IMG/VR virus record: IMGVR_UViG_3300048790_000078
Location: 22,260 to 86,259 of that record
DNA: 64,000 bases
Origin: a virus
Strand: one strand, 5' to 3'
A program made the position numbers and the translations under genes. This document shows positions 14,140-64,000 of the stretch, one piece after another. The notes beneath the pieces are model-generated. The model was given only the letters and a program-made list of their open reading frames with translations, ran no database searches and was not told where the DNA came from. Position 1 is the first letter of the stretch. Every line of letters starts with the position of its first letter.

Positions 14140-14610
14140 ATGAAAACGACTGACCTGCAGTTCAAGAATGAAACCTCAGACAAGACCTATACCGTCGCGA
14201 TCGACGGCCTGGAGGTGCTCTACATCTTCGGCAAGCGCGAAGGAACGAAGACGACCATGTTCCAGATCGCGGATGACAAGGCGGAAGCCCGCCAGCTCCA
14301 TGACGATTGCGTCAAAGGCCTGCTGAAGAAAGGCTACACGCTGGCGGCCGGTTCGGTGGCGCCGAAGACTCCGACCGATATCGCGGAGTTCCGGCGGGCC
14401 GCGGCTCTGAAAGCATGGGCGACCATGCGCGCCAACGGCATCAAGCCGGCGGAAGCGAAAGTGAAACGCTCGGAACCCATGACGGCGGAGGAACGCTCGG
14501 ACGCAGCGAAGCGCGCCTGGATCACCATTCGGGCGAATCGCGAAGCGGCTGCCAAAGCGGTCAAGGCCGAGGCGCGCGCGGCGAAGAAGCTCGCGAAGGT
14601 CGCGGCGTAG
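14140..14610 (+). CDS. WGR-like domain protein with two AAxxAWxTxR helical repeats
   Basis: SDKTYTV...YIFGKREG...LLKKGY then RRAAALKAWATMRAN / RSDAAKRAWITIRAN. Confidence 0.7.
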   Translation: MKTTDLQFKNETSDKTYTVAIDGLEVLYIFGKREGTKTTMFQIADDKAEARQLHDDCVKGLLKKGYTLAAGSVAPKTPTDIAEFRRAAALKAWATMRANGIKPAEAKVKRSEPMTAEERSDAAKRAWITIRANREAAAKAVKAEARAAKKLAKVAA

Positions 14611-14630
14611 ACGTTTCGATCCTGTAGTGC

Positions 14631-14659
14631 CCGGGCGGTGAGTTTACCCGCCCGGTTTT
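14631..14659 (+). terminator. Intrinsic terminator-like hairpin
   Basis: CCGGGCGG...CCGCCCGG followed by TTTT. Confidence 0.6.
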
Positions 14660-14745
14660 CCAATGCCTGCAAAATCGCAGCCTTCCCGTGGCGCAGGTGA
14701 TCTGTTACCAATGCGAAACCTTCCGAAAGTGAGATCCATCCATCC

Positions 14746-14955
14746 ATGACCGCTTCAATGAAATCCCGCGCGGATCGCGCGACCATCGACCTGATTCGCA
14801 TGTCGGCGAGCAAGCTCGTAGACGACACGAAAATTCATCTGGTGACACCGCTTCGCCCGCCCATGAAGCCGGCGACGGCCACCATCGGCGAATGCCTGGC
14901 GTTTGCCGGCCGCCTGGGGCAGTTCTCCAGCGTCACGATTCAGGCGGTGCGCTGA
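14746..14955 (+). CDS. Hypothetical protein
   Basis: CCGAAAG leader motif; part of the operon. Confidence 0.6.
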   Translation: MTASMKSRADRATIDLIRMSASKLVDDTKIHLVTPLRPPMKPATATIGECLAFAGRLGQFSSVTIQAVR

Positions 14956-14956
14956 C

Positions 14957-15322
14957 ATGGCGATTTCCTCCTTCCGCTCCGAAAGCATTATCGAACTCCT
15001 GCAGTATGAGGGGATCAAGAACGAACGGGACTTCGCCAACTGGTGCGCGGAGCGCCGGCAAAAAGGCGAGTCCCGCTTCTCGACTCTGAAGCGGATCTTC
15101 GGCGAGGTCAACGCTCACCGGATCATGCGCGTGGTCGAGGTCGCAAGCTGGAAGCTCGTAGACGTTCGCAAGAAGCGCGCGGCGATCAAGCGTACTGCCA
15201 GAACCATAGCGGCCACGCGGCGCGACCTGAAGGGCATCCGGCGCCAACTGATTCCGGCCGATGAGCGGTTGGATCTCAACCTGGTCGATTACTACTACAC
15301 CCGCGAAATGGGCGGAGCGTAG
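14957..15322 (+). CDS. Hypothetical basic protein
   Basis: Coupled ORF. Confidence 0.65.
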   Translation: MAISSFRSESIIELLQYEGIKNERDFANWCAERRQKGESRFSTLKRIFGEVNAHRIMRVVEVASWKLVDVRKKRAAIKRTARTIAATRRDLKGIRRQLIPADERLDLNLVDYYYTREMGGA

Positions 15323-56164: not shown

Positions 56165-56611
56165 TCATCTTCCCACAATCAGCCGCGCGTTGCCGACGAA
56201 CCCGACGCCGATTGGCGCCGCCAGCCCAAGGTCTACCAGCCCCGTCGCCCGCTCCCATGGATCACGGTAGCGCCAGCGCTGAAAGGCCGGCAAGAACTCC
56301 AGCGCCTCCTGCCCGATGCCGAACGCGAGAATCGCCGCTTTCGCAGCGGTGAACTTCGGCACGTTGAGCACGCACGGCTTCAGCAGGAATACTGCGTTCT
56401 GTTCGCACAGCGGCCCGCCAGGCGATCCGTACCTGATGGTGGTCACGTAGTCCCCGGCAGAGAACATCTGAAGCGCTGCGTTGGCCGTGCGGCGGAATGT
56501 GACGTCGTTCGGTGCATGGTGGTAGATGTGCGCGATGGCCGAGAGCGGGATCGAGACGGTCTGGGCCTGAGCGGAGAAGCAGGCGAGAAGGGCGGCGAGC
56601 AAGGGCTTCAT
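56165..56611 (-). CDS. Exported or membrane protein with signal peptide
   Basis: MKPLLAALLACFSAQA|QTVSI. Confidence 0.6.
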   Translation of the reverse strand: MKPLLAALLACFSAQAQTVSIPLSAIAHIYHHAPNDVTFRRTANAALQMFSAGDYVTTIRYGSPGGPLCEQNAVFLLKPCVLNVPKFTAAKAAILAFGIGQEALEFLPAFQRWRYRDPWERATGLVDLGLAAPIGVGFVGNARLIVGR

Positions 56612-56747
56612 GTGTCCAGGATACCGCGATTCAGTTCGCAAGGAATCCTTGACCGCTGGACGCGGAAATGTCACCGCGCCGGTCCCGTCCCGCCGGTCAC
56701 CCGCACGTCCTGGTTCCGGGCGCTTGCGGTGATGCAGAGGGACGGTC

Positions 56748-58913
56748 TCAATTTATCACCGTATAACTGAAGCAAGCTGGGTTTGTTACCGGTGCTGAGC
56801 TTGTGATGGTAAAGCTGACCCCCGCTGTACGAGCGCTCACCCCGAATAATGCTGGCTCCGTGGCGTTGCAGGTAACTCCCAGTTTAGCTCCGAGGCTGGC
56901 ATCGAATGTTACCAAAATTTGTGAATTGGCCGTGACTACTGAAGTGTTTACGGTCACCGTTGTTGCGGAAGCGGTGACCACTACAGATCCTGACGGAGCG
57001 TTCGCGCACGCTGCTGGCGAGGCAGAAGATGAACAATTGGAACTGGTCAATAAAAAAGGGGCGGATGGTAGCGTGATGTTTGAGGCAGGTTTCAGCGCTA
57101 CCATAAAAGCTGCGAACGGATCAGCCGAAGTATTGTCATTTGATACAGCGTTGGTGCTCCCGGCTATTCCCTGAACTTTATACTCTGTCAGAACCTGATT
57201 GGACAAGAATCTTTGAATCGCAGTGAACCCGCTCCCCGCGCTGTTCACGCCATTGTAAACAAGGGTGAACCCGAAAATTAAATCGTTATTGATGGCATTC
57301 GGGGCGATTGGGGTGTAGACGTTTCCCGTCCCCGTTCCACTCGTAGAACTGTTATTGGCGCTTTTTGTTGCGGCCTCAATAGAGGTGCACGACTTAGCAC
57401 CAACGATTTCGACCGCGAACATCCTCGGGTAGTTGGTGGACGTTGCTGCCGTGAGAGTCACAGTATTGCTGGCGGTCGAAAATGTATTTGATGCACAGAA
57501 AATCTCCGCGACGGTCGCGCTTCCATTGATGGCCGTGACGGCGCCTGCACCCGCATCGGCATATGTGTTTGTCGCGGTGTCGGCCACGCTGATTGTGTTG
57601 TTATTGGAATTTGATCCGCCGCTTAGAATGACGCTTCCGGGTGTAAGCGGATTGGTGAAAGTACATGCCAGATTAGGGCTTCCAGTTCCTGCCGGAGCCG
57701 TATTACTGCATGAATTGACGACCTGAAAACCATAGCCAACGGAAGCATTCAGAGCGGAGGTCGGGAAGATATTCCCAGTAGTATCCTGCTGAAATGGACT
57801 CAGCGAAGATAACGCCGCTCCGGTATTATTCGCGGGGATTGGCCCATACGCTACAGCCACCCCGGAACGCGGAACCCATCCGTTCGCGTTAAGCCCAATC
57901 GAAACCGGAGCGCTCCACGTTCCTGAATTTCCCGGCCACGAAGGGCTCTCGCTCCATGCCATTCCTGTCCCGGCATTTGACTGATCCATGTACATCCGGT
58001 AAGCTGTTGCGCCTGCCGATGTTGTGTATGTAACCAAAGACCCAGCTTCGACTGCCCCCCAATTTCCCCAGTTGGAGGCAGTTAAAGAGCACCCTGCTGT
58101 CGGCCCGGTGCATGTGAAATACACCAGTTGCTGCGTCCCGCTATTGTTGTTTTTGGCAACTAAAATGTAAGCGCCGCCGATGATGTACATCGAGCCATCG
58201 ATGTAATTTGTCCCCGTGATCGCATTTGGATTTCCACCTACAGTGCTTGTTCCCTGGGGGTTGACGGTTGACGTTCCGGCCCCAAAAGAGGAGAACGGAT
58301 TTGCCGCGGATGAAGTCACGGGAAGAGAATAAATCTCCATCGTGTTCATGGAGGCATTCCCCGCGCTGAGCATTACGTAGATACTTCCGTCTGCGTCTAT
58401 AAAAGGCTTAGGTGCCCAAAAGTCAACCGCTCCGGTGATAGTCGGCGTGACGGTAGCATAGGCACTCCAGTGAAGACCATCCGTACTGTTAGCGATCCCG
58501 AAATAGGCGTTATTCGACGTTGTATCGGTACACGATGCCGTGTCGGCGGTGTAAAACAGCCACCACTGATTATAAAGAAACAGGATGTCAGGGTCGCGCA
58601 GGGCAACTGTTGGAGTATAGGTAGGCCCGTCTCCCAGAAGCGTGAAGTTATGCCCGTCCGTAGAAATGGACAGGTGCATCTTGCATGAGCCAGGCTCTCC
58701 ACTGACCGATCCGTCGAAAGTCGGAAGCAGGATCATTTGAGTAGAGATCCACGCGGCGGAACTCGAAGACTGACCTACCACGACAGCCCCCGCGCTCGGA
58801 CTTACCGTTACCAGGGTGGGACCGATCCCCGAGGAGGCGGAACTTCCGATTTGGGCGTCCTGGCCGAGAAGCGCGGCGGCCGAAAGCAGAACTGCGACGA
58901 TAAGGCTTCTCAT
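56748..58913 (-). CDS. Signal-peptide protein with GH43/GH32-like beta-propeller and Ser/Thr-rich C-terminal domains
   Basis: MRSLIVAVLLSAAALLG|Q; LRDPDI, FWAPKPF, YIDG, AVEAG; STDG Asp-box-like motifs. Confidence 0.75.
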   Translation of the reverse strand: MRSLIVAVLLSAAALLGQDAQIGSSASSGIGPTLVTVSPSAGAVVVGQSSSSAAWISTQMILLPTFDGSVSGEPGSCKMHLSISTDGHNFTLLGDGPTYTPTVALRDPDILFLYNQWWLFYTADTASCTDTTSNNAYFGIANSTDGLHWSAYATVTPTITGAVDFWAPKPFIDADGSIYVMLSAGNASMNTMEIYSLPVTSSAANPFSSFGAGTSTVNPQGTSTVGGNPNAITGTNYIDGSMYIIGGAYILVAKNNNSGTQQLVYFTCTGPTAGCSLTASNWGNWGAVEAGSLVTYTTSAGATAYRMYMDQSNAGTGMAWSESPSWPGNSGTWSAPVSIGLNANGWVPRSGVAVAYGPIPANNTGAALSSLSPFQQDTTGNIFPTSALNASVGYGFQVVNSCSNTAPAGTGSPNLACTFTNPLTPGSVILSGGSNSNNNTISVADTATNTYADAGAGAVTAINGSATVAEIFCASNTFSTASNTVTLTAATSTNYPRMFAVEIVGAKSCTSIEAATKSANNSSTSGTGTGNVYTPIAPNAINNDLIFGFTLVYNGVNSAGSGFTAIQRFLSNQVLTEYKVQGIAGSTNAVSNDNTSADPFAAFMVALKPASNITLPSAPFLLTSSNCSSSASPAACANAPSGSVVVTASATTVTVNTSVVTANSQILVTFDASLGAKLGVTCNATEPALFGVSARTAGVSFTITSSAPVTNPACFSYTVIN

Positions 58914-59398
58914 TGTTCTATCCACCTGACGAAGGTATCCCCGCTGATGGTCCCGGTGAGCGGAGTCACCGAAACGCTGATGTTCTGGACGGTCGCGAGT
59001 CCGCGGGTCATGAACATGTTGGCGATGTTGAACGGCTGATTGCTGGTGAACGTGTAGCATCCCGCCGTCACACCGCCGCTGGAGTTGCTCGCCGTGTAGA
59101 CCTTGGTGGCTGAGATCGGAGCGCCAAAGAGTTGCTTCGGGCCCCCGGTATCCAGCGTGGTTGTAGCGGCCGTGCCGTTGTTGATGAAGCAGGCCTTAGC
59201 CGATTGCCCTGGCGTCAGGCTGATGCCGAGGTAGGCCCCGACCCACTGCCTGTTGGCGCCCGCCGGCAGTTGCAGCGTCAGTGTCTCTCCGGCCGAGGAG
59301 GCGAACGAGTCGTCGTAGGAGTACTGATTCGGCGGAGGAATCGTGCCTTGCGCCAGCAACGCGAGCGCGGTGAACGTCAGGATGAGCAATCGCTTCAT
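58910..59398 (-). CDS. Signal-peptide beta-sandwich protein
   Basis: MKRLLILTFTALALLA|QG; ATGA-coupled. Confidence 0.7.
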   Translation of the reverse strand: MKRLLILTFTALALLAQGTIPPPNQYSYDDSFASSAGETLTLQLPAGANRQWVGAYLGISLTPGQSAKACFINNGTAATTTLDTGGPKQLFGAPISATKVYTASNSSGGVTAGCYTFTSNQPFNIANMFMTRGLATVQNISVSVTPLTGTISGDTFVRWIEQ

Positions 59399-59443
59399 GC
59401 GAACAGTCTACCAATTCAGGACGTCTCCGTGGAGGTATGTCCT

Positions 59444-61915
59444 TTATTGGAGCACTCCGTTTACCCATGTGTACGTGCTGTTTGAGCATCCGCTCGGGAT
59501 GCCTGCCATGATCGTCGAGCAGTTCGTGACGTTCGTGGTTCCTGTGTACCCGGCCACCATCGCCGGGATAGAAAGGACGTTACCGGACTCCTGAAGCCCT
59601 GTGCCGACCGTGATCGCGCCTGTGTCGCCGCCGAGTGATGAGACGCCGGAGCTGCCACCGCCCATACAGTTCCAGTTTCCGTGATCGTATTGAGCAACCG
59701 TCCCAGTGCCACCCGTGACGCAAGCGCCTCCGGTAAATCCATCCTGTGAATTCTTGCAGTCAGTACAGTAAGCGAGAGCCCCGTCGCCGGGGACGCCAAG
59801 GCTGGAAAAGGCATAGTGGGTAAGCGCCAACTGCCCGTCCATGTTCACGTTTCCGTATAGATGAGTCGCTCCTGTAGACGTGGAAATGTGCATCAACTTT
59901 ACATATGTTTGACTGGTGCCTGCGGGCTTGCGATAGATAGAAAAGCTGTCGGCGTCTGAAAACGTCGCATCGTCATACCCTCCGATGTCCACTGCCCATG
60001 ATGGAAGGGCGCTGTTAGCCGGGACGCCTCCTGTGGTAGACGCTTTGGTTTCGTTTGCGGCCAGCCAAAGGCCATTGTAGTTACTTGCCGAGCCGCCGTT
60101 TGAGTGAAGCGCGCTGCCGAGTCCTGACGTAAAGGGGAACTGGATGTGAGAGGATGCTGCGGTACCAAAGCTAAAATCAAGCGAGTCCCACGCCATATTC
60201 AAAGATGTGAAAAACATCGACTGACTCGGACGATAGAAAGTGAATGTTTTAGCGACATTGAGAGCCGTGAAATCCATGACCCAGTCCCCGCCACCGTTGA
60301 GCTTAACAGCGATCTTATCGGTCGCTGCTGAGCCAAGGGAGAAAGGTCCGATGTCGAACTCATTCACTGCCGGGGTCTGGGTCACTCCCCCAGATCGCTC
60401 GCCAATTATCCCTATATCCGGCAGGAAACAGCTTGCCCCGTTGTTCCCGATCTGAGTCGGTGGCGACGATGCGTACAACGATCCGTTCAGGCAATTCGTA
60501 TAGCTGGCCTGTGTTCCGCCAACCACAGTCATTTCGTAAGGCAGTTGACCGTTCGTACTCGCGGTCGTGACGACGTTGGTGTTGTACTCCATGTACACGT
60601 CATCAAGCTGCAAGTTGCTTCCGCCGTCGTACAGAATACCGTCCGCGCCGCCGTCGATAAAGCCGCCGCTGATCTTGGTTCCAGCCGAGTTGCGCACGAT
60701 CACGTTCGACACGTAGCCCTTGACGCCGGTCCCGCGCATACGTGCATCGTTGCCGCCCGCATTGCCTGAACCAGGCCCATCGAATGACACCCCGAATGAT
60801 CCGGTCCATGTCTTTTGGTTGTAGAAATTCTCAATGGTCGAATCGACAATCTGGTTGCGATAGGTGACCGCTGTCGGCGTCCCGACCGCGTCCATATACA
60901 TCCAGATTCCTTGCCACATGTTGTTCATGTAGACATCTTTGATGATGCAGAACTGGGTATGCGTGGTCGTGGCATCGCTTGTGATCTCGATACCTTGATA
61001 CTGTGTTCCGCCGACCCCCTGGAAAGTGGCTCCGAGGACTTTGTTGCTGGAACCGAGGATAGTGAATACCCACTGGTTCGCGCAAATAGGGTTTATTACC
61101 GCTCCATACCCGCTGATCGTAATTGGCGCATTGGCGTTGGGCGTTCTGATCGTGACGGCGCAGATCGAATAGTTTCCGGCTGGCATCAGGATTGTTCCAC
61201 CGGAAATCTGAAGGCTATTGATAGCGGTCTGCAATGCCTGAGTGTCCGTTCCTGAGAAGTCTTTCACGCTGACGATATCCCGCATCTTCGCCTGAGCGCT
61301 ACGGGCCACGACAGCACCTGTCCCCTGCTGCACGAAAGTCTGAGAGTTGACCGAGCCGTTCGCTGTCGCCGTGACGGTCCAGTAATCGGTCGCTGAGTGC
61401 CCCGTTGTCGCCGCCCATGTGATCGTGACGCCATCACTGCCCGTCACCGTACCGCCCGATGTCCACGCCGCCGGGCAGCTTCCGACTGGAACCGAGAACT
61501 GCGTTGCGCTGACTCGCAGAACTGAAGCGTTCGCCACGTTGTAGCCGGATGGCGCTGCGCCGGTAACGGTCGCCTGCGCGCCGGTGAGCAGCCCATGAGA
61601 CGCTGCCGTGAAGGTGATCCGGCTTGCGGTACATGACGCCGCGGTGACCGTGCCTGCCGGATAGGTCATCGCCTGAGCTGCGCCTGTGACGTTGACCGCC
61701 GCGGTGGCCGTCCCGCCGTCGCGGGAGAACGTCACGGTGTCTGGCGTCCCCGACGCGGCAATCGTGGCCGTGTAGTAGTGGTTCGCCGCCGGGCTGGTGA
61801 ACGTCCCGCCGGAGGTCGCATCGTTCAGGCCGCTGCCTGTGAATACCGGCGGCCCGATGCTCACTGTCTGGGCGAGAGCGCAAGAGGAAACGAGGATAAG
61901 AAGTAGGGCTTTCAT
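59444..61915 (-). CDS. Tailspike-like beta-helix (pectate-lyase fold) protein with signal peptide
   Basis: MKALLLILVSSCALA|Q; RSAQAKMRDIVSVKDF..DTQALQTAIN..GGTILMPAGNY followed by beta-helix repeats. Confidence 0.8.
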   Translation of the reverse strand: MKALLLILVSSCALAQTVSIGPPVFTGSGLNDATSGGTFTSPAANHYYTATIAASGTPDTVTFSRDGGTATAAVNVTGAAQAMTYPAGTVTAASCTASRITFTAASHGLLTGAQATVTGAAPSGYNVANASVLRVSATQFSVPVGSCPAAWTSGGTVTGSDGVTITWAATTGHSATDYWTVTATANGSVNSQTFVQQGTGAVVARSAQAKMRDIVSVKDFSGTDTQALQTAINSLQISGGTILMPAGNYSICAVTIRTPNANAPITISGYGAVINPICANQWVFTILGSSNKVLGATFQGVGGTQYQGIEITSDATTTHTQFCIIKDVYMNNMWQGIWMYMDAVGTPTAVTYRNQIVDSTIENFYNQKTWTGSFGVSFDGPGSGNAGGNDARMRGTGVKGYVSNVIVRNSAGTKISGGFIDGGADGILYDGGSNLQLDDVYMEYNTNVVTTASTNGQLPYEMTVVGGTQASYTNCLNGSLYASSPPTQIGNNGASCFLPDIGIIGERSGGVTQTPAVNEFDIGPFSLGSAATDKIAVKLNGGGDWVMDFTALNVAKTFTFYRPSQSMFFTSLNMAWDSLDFSFGTAASSHIQFPFTSGLGSALHSNGGSASNYNGLWLAANETKASTTGGVPANSALPSWAVDIGGYDDATFSDADSFSIYRKPAGTSQTYVKLMHISTSTGATHLYGNVNMDGQLALTHYAFSSLGVPGDGALAYCTDCKNSQDGFTGGACVTGGTGTVAQYDHGNWNCMGGGSSGVSSLGGDTGAITVGTGLQESGNVLSIPAMVAGYTGTTNVTNCSTIMAGIPSGCSNSTYTWVNGVLQ

Positions 61916-61920
61916 GGGTT

Positions 61921-64000
61921 TTACGCTGGAATTGGCCAGTCAATCGTTGGCGTCGACGTTGCGCGCGTGTTGCCGGTCGCGTCGGTCTGGAAAGAGATCA
62001 CGCATTCAGTGTTCGCTGGGCTCGCCGACGTGTTCAGCGTCCCCTGGATGAAGTAGCCGTTGGACGGCGTCACGCTGAGCGAGTGGCCTTGCTGCTGCCA
62101 CCAGGTCGGGCTGGAGTCCGGACTATTGCCGGTGTTCGCTGCCGCCAGCGATACGTAAAGCTGCGCGACGTTCGAGCCGCCAGGTGCGAAGTGAACGAAT
62201 ACGCCGGCCGCATACGTGGTCCCGACTGCCCATGCTGGCGCACTCGGGTCTTCCTGGCTGATAAGGGACCAGTTTGTCAGGATGCCCGCGCCGGTGCTGT
62301 AGTTGATCGGCTGGCCGAGGATCGTGTCCTGGGTGAGCACCAGCAGGTTAGTTCCCTTTGAGGCATCCGGCGTTGCCACACCGTTGACAATAGGGACGTT
62401 GTAGTAGGGGCTCGGTGGCGCGACCGTGCCGCTCTGGCCGAAGATGTACGTCTCCTGCATTGGCGACAGTTCAAAGTCCGACAGGTTGCCCAGCGAATCG
62501 GCCGATTGGAGAACCAGCAGCGAACTGACGCCGCTCTGGTTCGGGACTGGCACGGTCACGACGTTCGCGAGCGTTGGGTAGGTGTATGGCGTCCCCGAAA
62601 TGACCACCGTGTTAAGGGCCAGCGTCAGGTCCGATGAGCCGTTCACGACTACGCTCGGGGTGTCTTTGAACCCAAGCGGAGAAGGGTAGAGGATAACGAA
62701 GTCCGTCGTCGCGTCCGGCGTCACGGCCCACATGCCTTCAATCGTTATCGAGGTGCTCGTGTTCGATGCGATCTTGTTGTAAATCTGCCCCGCGCCGGTT
62801 CCGCCGACCGCTATGATGATGTTGCCTTTGTCCTGGTTGACAGCCAGGCCGGAAGGCGCGTAACTGCTCACGAAGTTCGGATCGGTGAAGCTGTTCGAGG
62901 TGATGCTCTGGGGCATGATGCGGCACACCCAAACGTCCCCGGACGGAACGGACGAAGACAGAATTCCGGCGGTCACGAACACGCTCAGATCGGTGTCCAG
63001 CGTCAGGACAGAGGCTGGTCCGGCCGTGTTGCTCACGATGCCGACTTCGAGGAGCGGGATGAAGTCGATCAGGCCGCCAGGTGCCAGAGCGTAAAGCTTC
63101 AGCCGATACCCAGCCAACTGATTGAGCGTCAGGTTCGCGCTGCTGAACGTGACAGTGAACGATCCATACGATGTCGCAATGTCGCCGAAGATTCCGCCAT
63201 GCGAGATCTGGAACGCGGTCATGCGGAGGTGGTCTTCTACCTCGTCGAGCGGGCCGTAACCGTCCCCTGGCCCAAACGGTGCCAGCGAACTGAGCGTAAT
63301 CGTCGCTGGCGCTCCACCGATTCCGCCGTTGCCGCTCACAAAGCTCAACTGGTCGATGTTTGGGCCGGAGTACACCCGATAGCCGTAATTGCTCGGGTCC
63401 CATGACGGCGTAATCACGACTTTAGAGCTACCGCTCGCCACAACGACCGTCGTCAATGCGAAGTTGGTTTCGATCCCATTGGTATCGTATCCAGACAAGG
63501 CCACGAGGTAGGTGCCGGCCGCGATGCTTCCGCCTCCGATAACTGCCGTGCTGGTGATCTTCGGTGCGCGGATCGCAGTCGTCGCCGTGTTCTTGGGAGG
63601 AATAAAGGCTGATGCAATCCCGACGCTGACGCTCGGGTCGGAGTTCTGGACACTCGACTGCATCAGGGTCATCCCGGGAGTCAGGCCGAGAAGGCTTGGG
63701 TCCTCGTTCAGGTTGAACGCTCCGACAGGCTGAGGCGGTAGAGGGAACCGTGTCTGTGTGCCTCTCACGGTGAACGGATACGCCGTCACGCTGGAGATGT
63801 TCTCATGCTGCTGGCCTGCCTGGTTGAACGCCGGAAACTTGAACCAGAACGTCTTGCCGATGTCGCCGGGCTGCAGTTGGTATTCGTACTGATTCCCATC
63901 TGCGATCAGAGTGAATGGCGCGTTGGAGGCATGCGGAACGTCGAACGTTCCGAAAACCCCGCGGCGCATGTACTTCGCCCCGCCGCCGGACTCGAAGTCG
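61921..64000 (-). CDS. Tail/host-specificity protein, C-terminal part (5' end outside window)
   Basis: RRGVFGT...IGKTFWFKFPAFN; CBM5/12-like AWAVGTTYAAG...LYVSL...PDSSPTWW. Confidence 0.75.
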   Translation of the reverse strand, partial: DFESGGGAKYMRRGVFGTFDVPHASNAPFTLIADGNQYEYQLQPGDIGKTFWFKFPAFNQAGQQHENISSVTAYPFTVRGTQTRFPLPPQPVGAFNLNEDPSLLGLTPGMTLMQSSVQNSDPSVSVGIASAFIPPKNTATTAIRAPKITSTAVIGGGSIAAGTYLVALSGYDTNGIETNFALTTVVVASGSSKVVITPSWDPSNYGYRVYSGPNIDQLSFVSGNGGIGGAPATITLSSLAPFGPGDGYGPLDEVEDHLRMTAFQISHGGIFGDIATSYGSFTVTFSSANLTLNQLAGYRLKLYALAPGGLIDFIPLLEVGIVSNTAGPASVLTLDTDLSVFVTAGILSSSVPSGDVWVCRIMPQSITSNSFTDPNFVSSYAPSGLAVNQDKGNIIIAVGGTGAGQIYNKIASNTSTSITIEGMWAVTPDATTDFVILYPSPLGFKDTPSVVVNGSSDLTLALNTVVISGTPYTYPTLANVVTVPVPNQSGVSSLLVLQSADSLGNLSDFELSPMQETYIFGQSGTVAPPSPYYNVPIVNGVATPDASKGTNLLVLTQDTILGQPINYSTGAGILTNWSLISQEDPSAPAWAVGTTYAAGVFVHFAPGGSNVAQLYVSLAAANTGNSPDSSPTWWQQQGHSLSVTPSNGYFIQGTLNTSASPANTECVISFQTDATGNTRATSTPTIDWPIPA

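Follow-up and report, generated by a model that had tools for sequence, protein, structure and literature searches.

Tailspikes and tail fibres of tailed phages normally carry no signal peptide and are assembled onto particles in the cytoplasm. Cleavable Sec leaders are found on other phage proteins that act in or beyond the periplasm, such as the g3p of filamentous phages, secreted endolysins, T5 Llp and lambda Bor, and g3p is both exported and a component of the virion; filamentous phages, however, unlike tailed ones, are assembled at the membrane, and the endolysins and exclusion lipoproteins are small proteins of unrelated fold that do not resemble tailspikes. Here we describe four consecutive genes, named A, B, C and D, at the end of the late operon of a phage, each of which encodes a predicted Sec-type leader followed by glutamine. 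The genes lie on IMG/VR record IMGVR_UViG_3300048790_000078, a single viral contig of 86,259 bp; the window analysed is its right-hand 64 kb (64,000 nucleotides). Tentatively, and with a little less than even confidence, we read A-D as substrates of the Sec pathway and signal peptidase I (SPase-I) that would act as free or envelope-located enzymes of a phage most likely infecting Acidobacteriota.

Exported proteins related to tailspikes are known from bacterial chromosomes. WceF of Pantoea stewartii is an exported glycanase of tailspike fold, encoded in an exopolysaccharide (EPS) cluster, that cuts the cell's own exopolysaccharide (PMC7949094), and RbmB of Vibrio cholerae is a polysaccharide lyase that has been crystallised with Vibrio polysaccharide. 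Leaders whose cleavage exposes Gln at position +1 follow the "Q-rule", which was reported to be specific to Bacteroidetes (PMC5837995). Such leaders are also found on the products of five functionally unassigned genes in phages of P. gingivalis, where they were read as an adaptation to host secretion (PMC10367356). The target proteins of phage diversity-generating retroelements are stated to be without such signals, unlike the bacterial ones (PMC6199706), and in the literature searched no tailspike- or fibre-type protein of a tailed phage was described as having a Sec leader.

Set beside the virion tailspike depolymerases (K64-1 S2-4, the K1 lyase of NTUH-K2044-K1-1, Pam1, Sf6 and HK620), the locus is alike in the beta-helix body predicted for A, in the C-terminal beta-sandwich predicted for C and in the placement of its genes at the end of the tail block. 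It differs in that every member of the cassette bears a leader, that no particle-binding N-terminal domain is recognised, and that the predicted catalytic body of C is a GH43-like propeller instead of a beta-helix. The likeness to WceF and RbmB lies in a leader-bearing bacterial homologue of A that is encoded within an EPS-synthesis locus; WceF, however, uses a Tat leader for folded export whereas the leaders of A-D are of Sec type, and WceF and RbmB are chromosomal whereas A-D belong to a phage late operon. The P. gingivalis phage proteins share leaders whose cleavage exposes Gln, yet those are five genes in Bacteroidota prophages, whereas here we find large tailspike-type enzymes, a host that is most likely acidobacterial and a family of more than 1,000 protein clusters. 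The parts (signal peptide, beta-helix or GH43-like body, tailspike C-terminal domain) are known, and the combination, the cassette form and the breadth are new.

Four adjacent genes begin with predicted Sec leaders

The N-termini are MKALLLILVSSCALA/QTVSI in A, MKRLLILTFTALALLA/QG in B, MRSLIVAVLLSAAALLG/QD in C and MKPLLAALLACFSAQA/QTVSI in D, where the slash marks the predicted cut. All four are present as quoted in an earlier note on this DNA, which had drawn attention to consecutive genes with basic, hydrophobic and cleavage segments followed by Gln. The layout is the same throughout: one or two basic residues precede a hydrophobic core that is free of charge, and small residues occupy -3 and -1 ahead of the Gln. 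The predicted junctions are ALA/QT (A), LLA/QG (B), LLG/QD (C) and AQA/QT (D). None of the four leaders contains a twin-arginine (RR) motif. Lipobox-like strings occur in A (VSSC, Cys12) and D (LLAC, Cys11), in both cases with the Cys very near the N-terminus; in homologues of A this Cys is not kept, whereas the Ala/Ser-Gln junction is.

To rank the leaders, every start of every open reading frame (ORF) of at least 60 aa in the 86-kb contig was scored with a crude von Heijne-style rule of our own (basic n-region, uncharged h-region of 7-15 residues, small residues at -3 and -1). By this rule the five top scores among the real genes, about 110 in number, belong to A, B, C, D and a 481-aa protein of the head module. 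Four adjacent leaders among about 110 genes lie far beyond chance. Signal peptides occur on only 5% of prophage carbohydrate-active enzymes (PMC13507307), so the cassette does not represent background. The four N-termini show all sequence features of cleavable Sec/SPase-I signals.

The mature N-terminus QTVSI is identical in A and D (61853-61915 and 56564-56611), with leader cores that are unrelated. The DNA of the two N-terminal regions is only loosely similar, which makes a recent duplication unlikely.

The fifth leader-bearing protein is rich in Ser and Thr and is encoded outside the window, on the minus strand at contig positions 12669-14114, just upstream of the prohead protease gene. Its predicted junction is PASA/QT, its mature part has 8 Cys and 4.8% charged residues, and it matches nothing in Pfam or PHROG.

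Gene A: a predicted beta-helix protein in three settings

The tailspike signature noted earlier in A, RSAQAKMRDIVSVKDF, is present at residues 205-220. Searches of Pfam, PHROG and NCBIfam gave no match for A, and a sequence search of the PDB gave no usable one. Genes of tailspike-like or lyase-like kind that match residues 183-330 occur on 13 viral contigs and in two cultured phages, and a "putative lyase superfamily protein" from Pseudomonas phage MR4 is likewise a match of this region. An AlphaFold2 (AF2) model of the whole protein has a mean pLDDT of 46, rising to about 80 over residues 215-340. Its fold matches are right-handed beta-helices: RbmB, AlgE4, GH87 enzymes and the tailspikes of HK620, Pam1, Dettilon and CBA120. 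The beta-helix proposed in the earlier note is therefore supported at the level of fold, in a model of low confidence. Residues 16-190 form a repeat module that also occurs inside large phage structural-like proteins; behind the leaders of the cassette, Pfam, PHROG and NCBIfam recognised no particle-binding N-terminal domain.

The body of A, with its N-terminal module and its beta-helix, was found in three settings. The first is a metagenome-assembled genome (MAG) of Bryobacteraceae from SPRUCE peat (locus L014), whose protein is 50% identical to A over the helix and has a leader ending ALA/QTVAF. Its neighbours encode an epimerase, a methyltransferase, a glycosyltransferase and a sugar transferase, which identify the locus as one for exopolysaccharide and not a prophage. 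The second is a prophage of Terriglobia (L015), where the homologue follows capsid and tail genes and has no leader; its sequence starts MSLNVTIGTP..GLNDVTSGG, exactly at the mature N-terminus of A. The third comprises the present phage and its metagenomic relatives, with a leader. Since the L015 copy and the inspected structural-region proteins of the Acidobacteriota phage Tunturi_3 are leaderless, the leader of A-D appears to be an added, selected feature. In the L015 prophage, a leader-bearing protein with the junction FG/QQ is encoded directly after the capsid gene.

We read A as a beta-helix enzyme whose nearest cellular relative is encoded in an exopolysaccharide-synthesis locus, and which is predicted to be a polysaccharide cutter of tailspike ancestry.

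Conservation of the leaders, glutamine at +1 and the likely host

Signal peptides were also sought in homologues, and leaders proved to be kept in the families of A, of B and of the C-terminal domain of C. All full-length homologues of A (P0002, P0004, P0005 and P0010) have a leader followed by Gln in spite of divergent hydrophobic cores, and Q16 and V18 are invariant in the alignment of the A family. Leader and Gln are likewise kept in the B homologues P0164 (58% identity) and P0165 (53% identity). This pattern supports a leader that would be maintained in function and not in sequence.

Gln occupies +1 in all four cassette proteins and in the 481-aa protein. The same preference was found in Acidobacteriota, where, among 40 predicted leaders from two genomes, 12 have Gln at this position against a background of 3.8% (p 1.7e-8), in a small sample of 400 kb (G181 and G191) taken with the crude predictor and without a proper control phylum. 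At positions +2 to +10 of these leaders Gln occurs one to four times per position. In 50 kb of E. coli, taken as a control, the same rule yielded only 2 predicted leaders. On 48 viral loci, 42 of 77 predicted leaders have Gln at +1. These counts suggest that the Q-rule extends to Acidobacteriota, and the shared preference makes the phage leaders look like native substrates of the host signal peptidase.

The host is most likely a member of the Acidobacteriota, as judged from the relatives of A in L014 and L015, the structural neighbours of D, a match of the gene upstream of A to Tunturi_3 and a GC content of 0.59. Tunturi_3 (PMC11924767; PP885686.1) is alike in its likely host phylum and in a tail fiber protein that matches part of that upstream gene. 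It differs in that a leader was found in none of the 27 proteins of its structural region that were inspected, which is the conventional state. A shared anchor domain between the mature N-termini of family members and the N-termini of Tunturi_3 fibres was considered and found no support in BLASTP.

The hydrophobic N-termini could have another meaning: the true starts might lie downstream, or the segments might be a membrane tether or a pro-peptide cut by a phage protease. In line with this, no Shine-Dalgarno-like motif precedes the ATG of A, B, C or D, or that of the upstream tail-fibre-like gene, and the public gene call of C begins at residue 60. In A, moreover, an in-frame GTG at codon 18 would give a leaderless start almost where the L015 homologue begins. 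That start was rejected, because the GTG lacks a ribosome-binding motif and is replaced by GTC in the homologue from Bryobacteraceae. The start of C is fixed by an ATGA overlap with the stop of B, which also couples the translation of the two genes, and Shine-Dalgarno-like motifs are present in only about half of the other phage genes checked. Leaders are kept, furthermore, across divergent homologues and about 100 representatives of the C-terminal-domain family, and the enrichment of Gln is specific to +1. We therefore regard an explanation other than export as very improbable.

Gene C: a predicted GH43-like body with a tailspike-type C-terminal domain

The earlier note had proposed a GH43-like propeller in C, and this finds support at the level of fold only. 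All ten rows of ESM Atlas neighbours are of GH43 type (TM 0.40-0.77 by target; pTM of the Atlas model 0.48). Membership by sequence did not follow: the Pfam GH43 profile (PF04616) scored 17 bits against a gathering threshold of 32.2, with an E-value of 0.0039 and over residues 108-200 only. The strings RDPD (106-109), WAPK (166-169) and VEAGS (288-292) resemble GH43 motifs. The middle domain (residues 391-609) occurs three times in P0014, a metagenomic protein of 1,576 aa, with Ig-like repeats between the copies. For C as a whole, the IMG/VR scan gave no relatives and a word-based homologue search returned C alone; PDB sequence searches with C and with a profile of its C-terminal domain gave no usable match.

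The last 105 residues of C are a domain of their own, which is more informative than any other part of the cassette; AF2 modelled it with a pLDDT of 92.7. Its top structural match is the C-terminus of the Klebsiella phage K64-1 depolymerase S2-4 (Z 10.1, rmsd 2.5 Å over 76 aligned residues, 32% identity), followed by the K1 lyase (Z 7.7), the Pam1 tailspike (Z 6.8, 36% identity), an R-pyocin fibre and the LKA1 and Sf6 tailspikes. The Pfam family K1-lyase_C matched C below its cut-off (E 3.8e-5). A sorting role for the domain, of the type IX secretion system (T9SS) or PEP-CTERM kind, was considered and is not supported, as NCBIfam gave no match at E<=0.1 for any of five proteins and the structure search returned tailspike C-termini. 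The matches of this modelled domain to depolymerase and tailspike C-termini show C to be of tailspike descent. We read it as a GH43-like propeller joined to a tailspike-type C-terminal domain, and thus as a predicted polysaccharide cutter of tailspike ancestry.

A viral family of leader-bearing proteins shares the C-terminal domain

An exhaustive HMMER search found the domain in 1,794 representative proteins, 1,202 of them at E<=1e-10. Nearly all matches are confined to the domain, with 60-73% identity and always at the extreme C-terminus, and the bodies that precede it are highly varied. Four Cys are invariant in the alignments. Among 143 family representatives that start with Met, 105 pass the leader rule, and many of the misses are evident leaders with a mis-called start; Gln stands at the predicted +1 in 63 of those 105. 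A test of the hydrophobic N-terminal window on 127 members gave 102 leader-like, 9 not leader-like and 16 ambiguous sequences. From these tests, a leader would be present in about 80-90% of the more than 1,000 protein clusters that share the domain.

In IMG/VR the domain was found on 48 contigs (median GC 0.56), where at least 34 of 44 complete ORFs that carry it bear a leader. It gave three weak matches only in 301 Acidobacteriota species genomes, was absent from the two MAGs that hold relatives of A, and was not found in cultured phages. The contigs that carry it are otherwise unrelated to this phage: tblastn of 20 phage proteins against the fetched loci revealed no other gene in common, so the domain appears to be a mobile module, and the family appears to be viral.

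Carriers of the domain often stand beside other large leader-bearing genes; such genes number four on L048, three on both L054 and L061, and two on L065. PHROG identified virion structural neighbours on L054 alone; on L043 and L065 the neighbours gave homing endonucleases only. A further contig from JGI (L103), which was found through B, has a classical tail-fibre ORF followed by a leader-bearing collagen-like protein, a leader-bearing homologue of B, another collagen-like protein with a leader and, in fourth place, one more leader-bearing gene, and so repeats the layout of the A-D cassette.

One metagenomic member of the family, P0089 (249 aa), combines a lysozyme-like N-terminus (WEG..P.AY.D..G) with the C-terminal domain and has no leader. 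The domain may be a binding module that lysis enzymes use too.

The same evidence bears on whether the cassette could be cargo, that is, secreted glycoside hydrolases derived from a host, serving hemicellulose use or lysogenic surface conversion and playing no part in adsorption or egress. In favour of cargo, a GH43 fold is characteristic of enzymes that act on arabinan and xylan, and A has its relative in a bacterial locus. The third-position GC of C is 0.55, the lowest among the large genes, and together with the missing Shine-Dalgarno-like motifs of A-D this hints at separate acquisition. Soil viruses with glycoside hydrolases have also been reported (PMC6172770; PMC13507307). Against cargo, the C-terminal domain is of tailspike type and is found on viral contigs, with only the three weak matches among Acidobacteriota genomes; the genes are co-oriented and translationally coupled at the end of a late structural operon; and L103 has the same cassette layout after a tail-fibre gene. 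On balance we consider cargo improbable.

Cysteines compatible with disulfide bonds

The Cys pairs that the earlier note had quoted are C717/C720 and C799/C810 in A, and C268/C275 and C627/C636 in C. The pairs are there, but the many Cys that the note had stressed do not amount to an enrichment, as the Cys content of 1.2-2.0% is not above that of the cytoplasmic proteins of this phage. Nor did leader-bearing and leaderless members of the domain family differ in Cys enrichment.

An even number of Cys is a classical mark of disulfide-bonded exported proteins. In their mature parts B and D have two Cys each, C has 12 and the 481-aa protein has 8, all of them even numbers, and only A, with 13, has an odd one; in the middle regions of leader-bearing family members the count is even in 77 of 102. 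The even counts and the four invariant Cys of the domain fit disulfide bonding, to judge from sequence. Leaderless members of the domain family, P0089 included, keep all four domain Cys, so that the Cys argument alone does not require the periplasm.

Genes B and D

Two Cys of B are conserved among its homologues, and on L103 the B homologue has the same placement, between two leader-bearing fibre-like genes. B occupies a position that is usual for tail-fibre assembly genes. It is possibly a small co-exported partner that helps in assembly.

D had been grouped with the glycosidase-like genes in the earlier note. This description has to be given up, as D resembles DUF5658; in the ESM Atlas its neighbours belong to DUF5658 or hypothetical clusters, which are most frequent in Acidobacteriota.

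Free enzymes or components of the particle

The earlier note had inferred that the proteins are exported and oxidatively folded and then either join virions at lysis or act as secreted or surface enzymes, and this is borne out in part. The analysis shows the leaders and their conservation, the folds, the three settings of A and the viral distribution of the family. For A-D we infer export, leader cleavage, disulfides, substrate and a free rather than virion-bound state, and of these export and oxidative folding are well supported by the sequence features described above. As free or envelope-located enzymes, A-D would be made late in infection together with the structural proteins. They would pass unfolded through SecYEG, be cut after the small residue that precedes Gln, and fold with disulfides in the oxidising periplasm. 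Acting from the periplasm, they would target capsule, exopolysaccharide or receptor of the infected cell itself and, once the cell has lysed, the matrix around it, such that the progeny would escape without being trapped or re-adsorbing.

We favour free enzymes because A has as its nearest cellular relative an ordinary exported enzyme that an EPS locus encodes, because there is a precedent in WceF (PMC7949094) together with the match of the A model to RbmB, and because no particle-binding domain is recognisable. In addition, a Sec leader takes a protein out of the compartment in which tails are built.

Several findings weigh against this reading. The cleavage sites of the leaders rest on our crude rule. 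Sec export reaches the periplasm only, and no route across the outer membrane is evident. In the approximately 76% of the genome at hand, we saw no leaderless paralogue that might take the place of a spike on the virion itself.

Other findings that weigh against free enzymes also support a different course, in which A, C and their relatives would be the real receptor-binding or depolymerase spikes, which mature in the periplasm, where they are oxidatively folded and capped with pyro-Glu, and which are docked onto particles still without spikes only at lysis, when the inner membrane gives way, perhaps with B as a helper. We consider such docking unlikely, if still a serious contender. A-D are positioned where tailspike genes lie, as they close the late operon and follow a tail-fibre-like gene, and the last domain of C is of the kind found at the distal end of virion tailspikes (K64-1 S2-4, K1 lyase, Pam1, Sf6). 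In the A family the N-terminal 190 residues are conserved and the C-terminal parts variable, the pattern of virion-anchored spikes. The leader-bearing genes of L054 are flanked by virion structural genes, and on L103 leader-bearing collagen-like fibre genes and a B homologue come directly after a classical tail-fibre gene. Docking is further supported by the leaderless homologue in the L015 prophage tail module, by the place of B where tail-fibre assembly genes usually sit, and by the charged residues of A-C (6-9%), which are as few as in the exposed tail-fibre-like protein (9%).

Docking is opposed by the lack of a precedent among tailed phages in the literature searched, by the same want of a recognised particle-binding domain and by the closest cellular homologue of A, an ordinary exported enzyme of an EPS locus. 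Particles would, moreover, be non-infectious until lysis; the same Cys stand in leaderless family members, so that periplasmic oxidation is not obligatory; and the cultured Acidobacteriota phage Tunturi_3 has leaderless fibres. A broader proposal, to which we give slightly less credence again, is that a large undescribed class of soil and peat phages sends its receptor-binding spikes and fibres through Sec, with periplasmic disulfides, pyro-Glu, a B-like helper and mounting, only at lysis, on particles that are otherwise complete.

Either these phages secrete enzymes that destroy matrix or receptor, or part of their tail assembly takes place outside the cytoplasm. Docking at lysis, if true, would give tailed phages a second, extracytoplasmic compartment for assembly. 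The choice bears on how phages that infect slime-producing soil bacteria such as Acidobacteria enter and leave their hosts, and on whether the glycoside hydrolases of peat viruses are to be read as carbon-cycling cargo or as infection machinery. A further question that it touches is which phage enzymes are by nature suited to an extracellular environment that is oxidising and acidic.

Locus, operon and neighbouring genes

The contig is classified in IMG/VR as linear and about 76% complete, so about 24% of the genome is missing. The late operon runs on the minus strand, in the order terminase, intein-bearing portal, head protease, major capsid protein (PHROG 13692) and head-tail adaptor, and continues over the contig junction to the tail-fibre-like gene and then A, B, C and D. 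The cassette thus forms the last four genes of the operon, which ends at 56165 where convergent early genes adjoin. The coordinates of the genes and their parts are collected in Table 1.

Table 1. Features of the A-D cassette and the gene upstream of it (positions in the 64-kb window)
Feature	Position	Strand	Description
Upstream tail-fibre-like gene	61921..63969	minus	ORF; 682 aa from first ATG; no leader
Gene A	59444..61915	minus	823 aa; leader, GLNDATSGG/TTGH repeat domain, predicted right-handed beta-helix, Cys-containing C-terminal part
A signal peptide	61871..61915	minus	residues 1-15; predicted cut ALA/Q
RSAQAKMRDIVSVKDF motif	61256..61303	minus	A residues 205-220; beginning of predicted beta-helix
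Gene B	58910..59398	minus	162 aa; small, beta-rich, 2 Cys
B leader	59351..59398	minus	residues 1-16
Gene C	56748..58913	minus	721 aa; true start ATG 58913, inside long ORF 56748-59060
C leader	58863..58913	minus	residues 1-17
C GH43-like propeller	57744..58736	minus	residues ~60-390; fold level
C middle domain	57087..57743	minus	residues 391-609
C C-terminal domain	56751..57065	minus	residues 617-721; tailspike-type beta-sandwich, four invariant Cys
Gene D	56165..56611	minus	148 aa; true start ATG 56611; DUF5658-like
D leader	56564..56611	minus	residues 1-16

The earlier note had placed the cassette downstream of a tail protein. The position is correct, but the identity of the upstream gene as a tail fibre is weak: over residues 578-638 it is 42.6% identical, at an E-value of 5e-4, to a protein annotated as tail fiber in Tunturiibacter phage Tunturi_3. 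Its PHROG matches are to families of unknown function only, the IMG/VR scan gave no relatives and a PDB sequence search gave no usable match. The frame is still open at the contig end (63999).

Searches with Phage_lysozyme, Amidase_2 and SLT found no endolysin on the contig, and no tape-measure gene was found on it; given its completeness of about 76%, genes for tail and lysis functions are probably to be sought in the portion of the genome that is missing. Beside the 481-aa leader gene of the head module, and likewise outside the window, a 373-aa ORF on the minus strand (contig 14189-15310) has a start that by eye resembles TnpB/OrfB.

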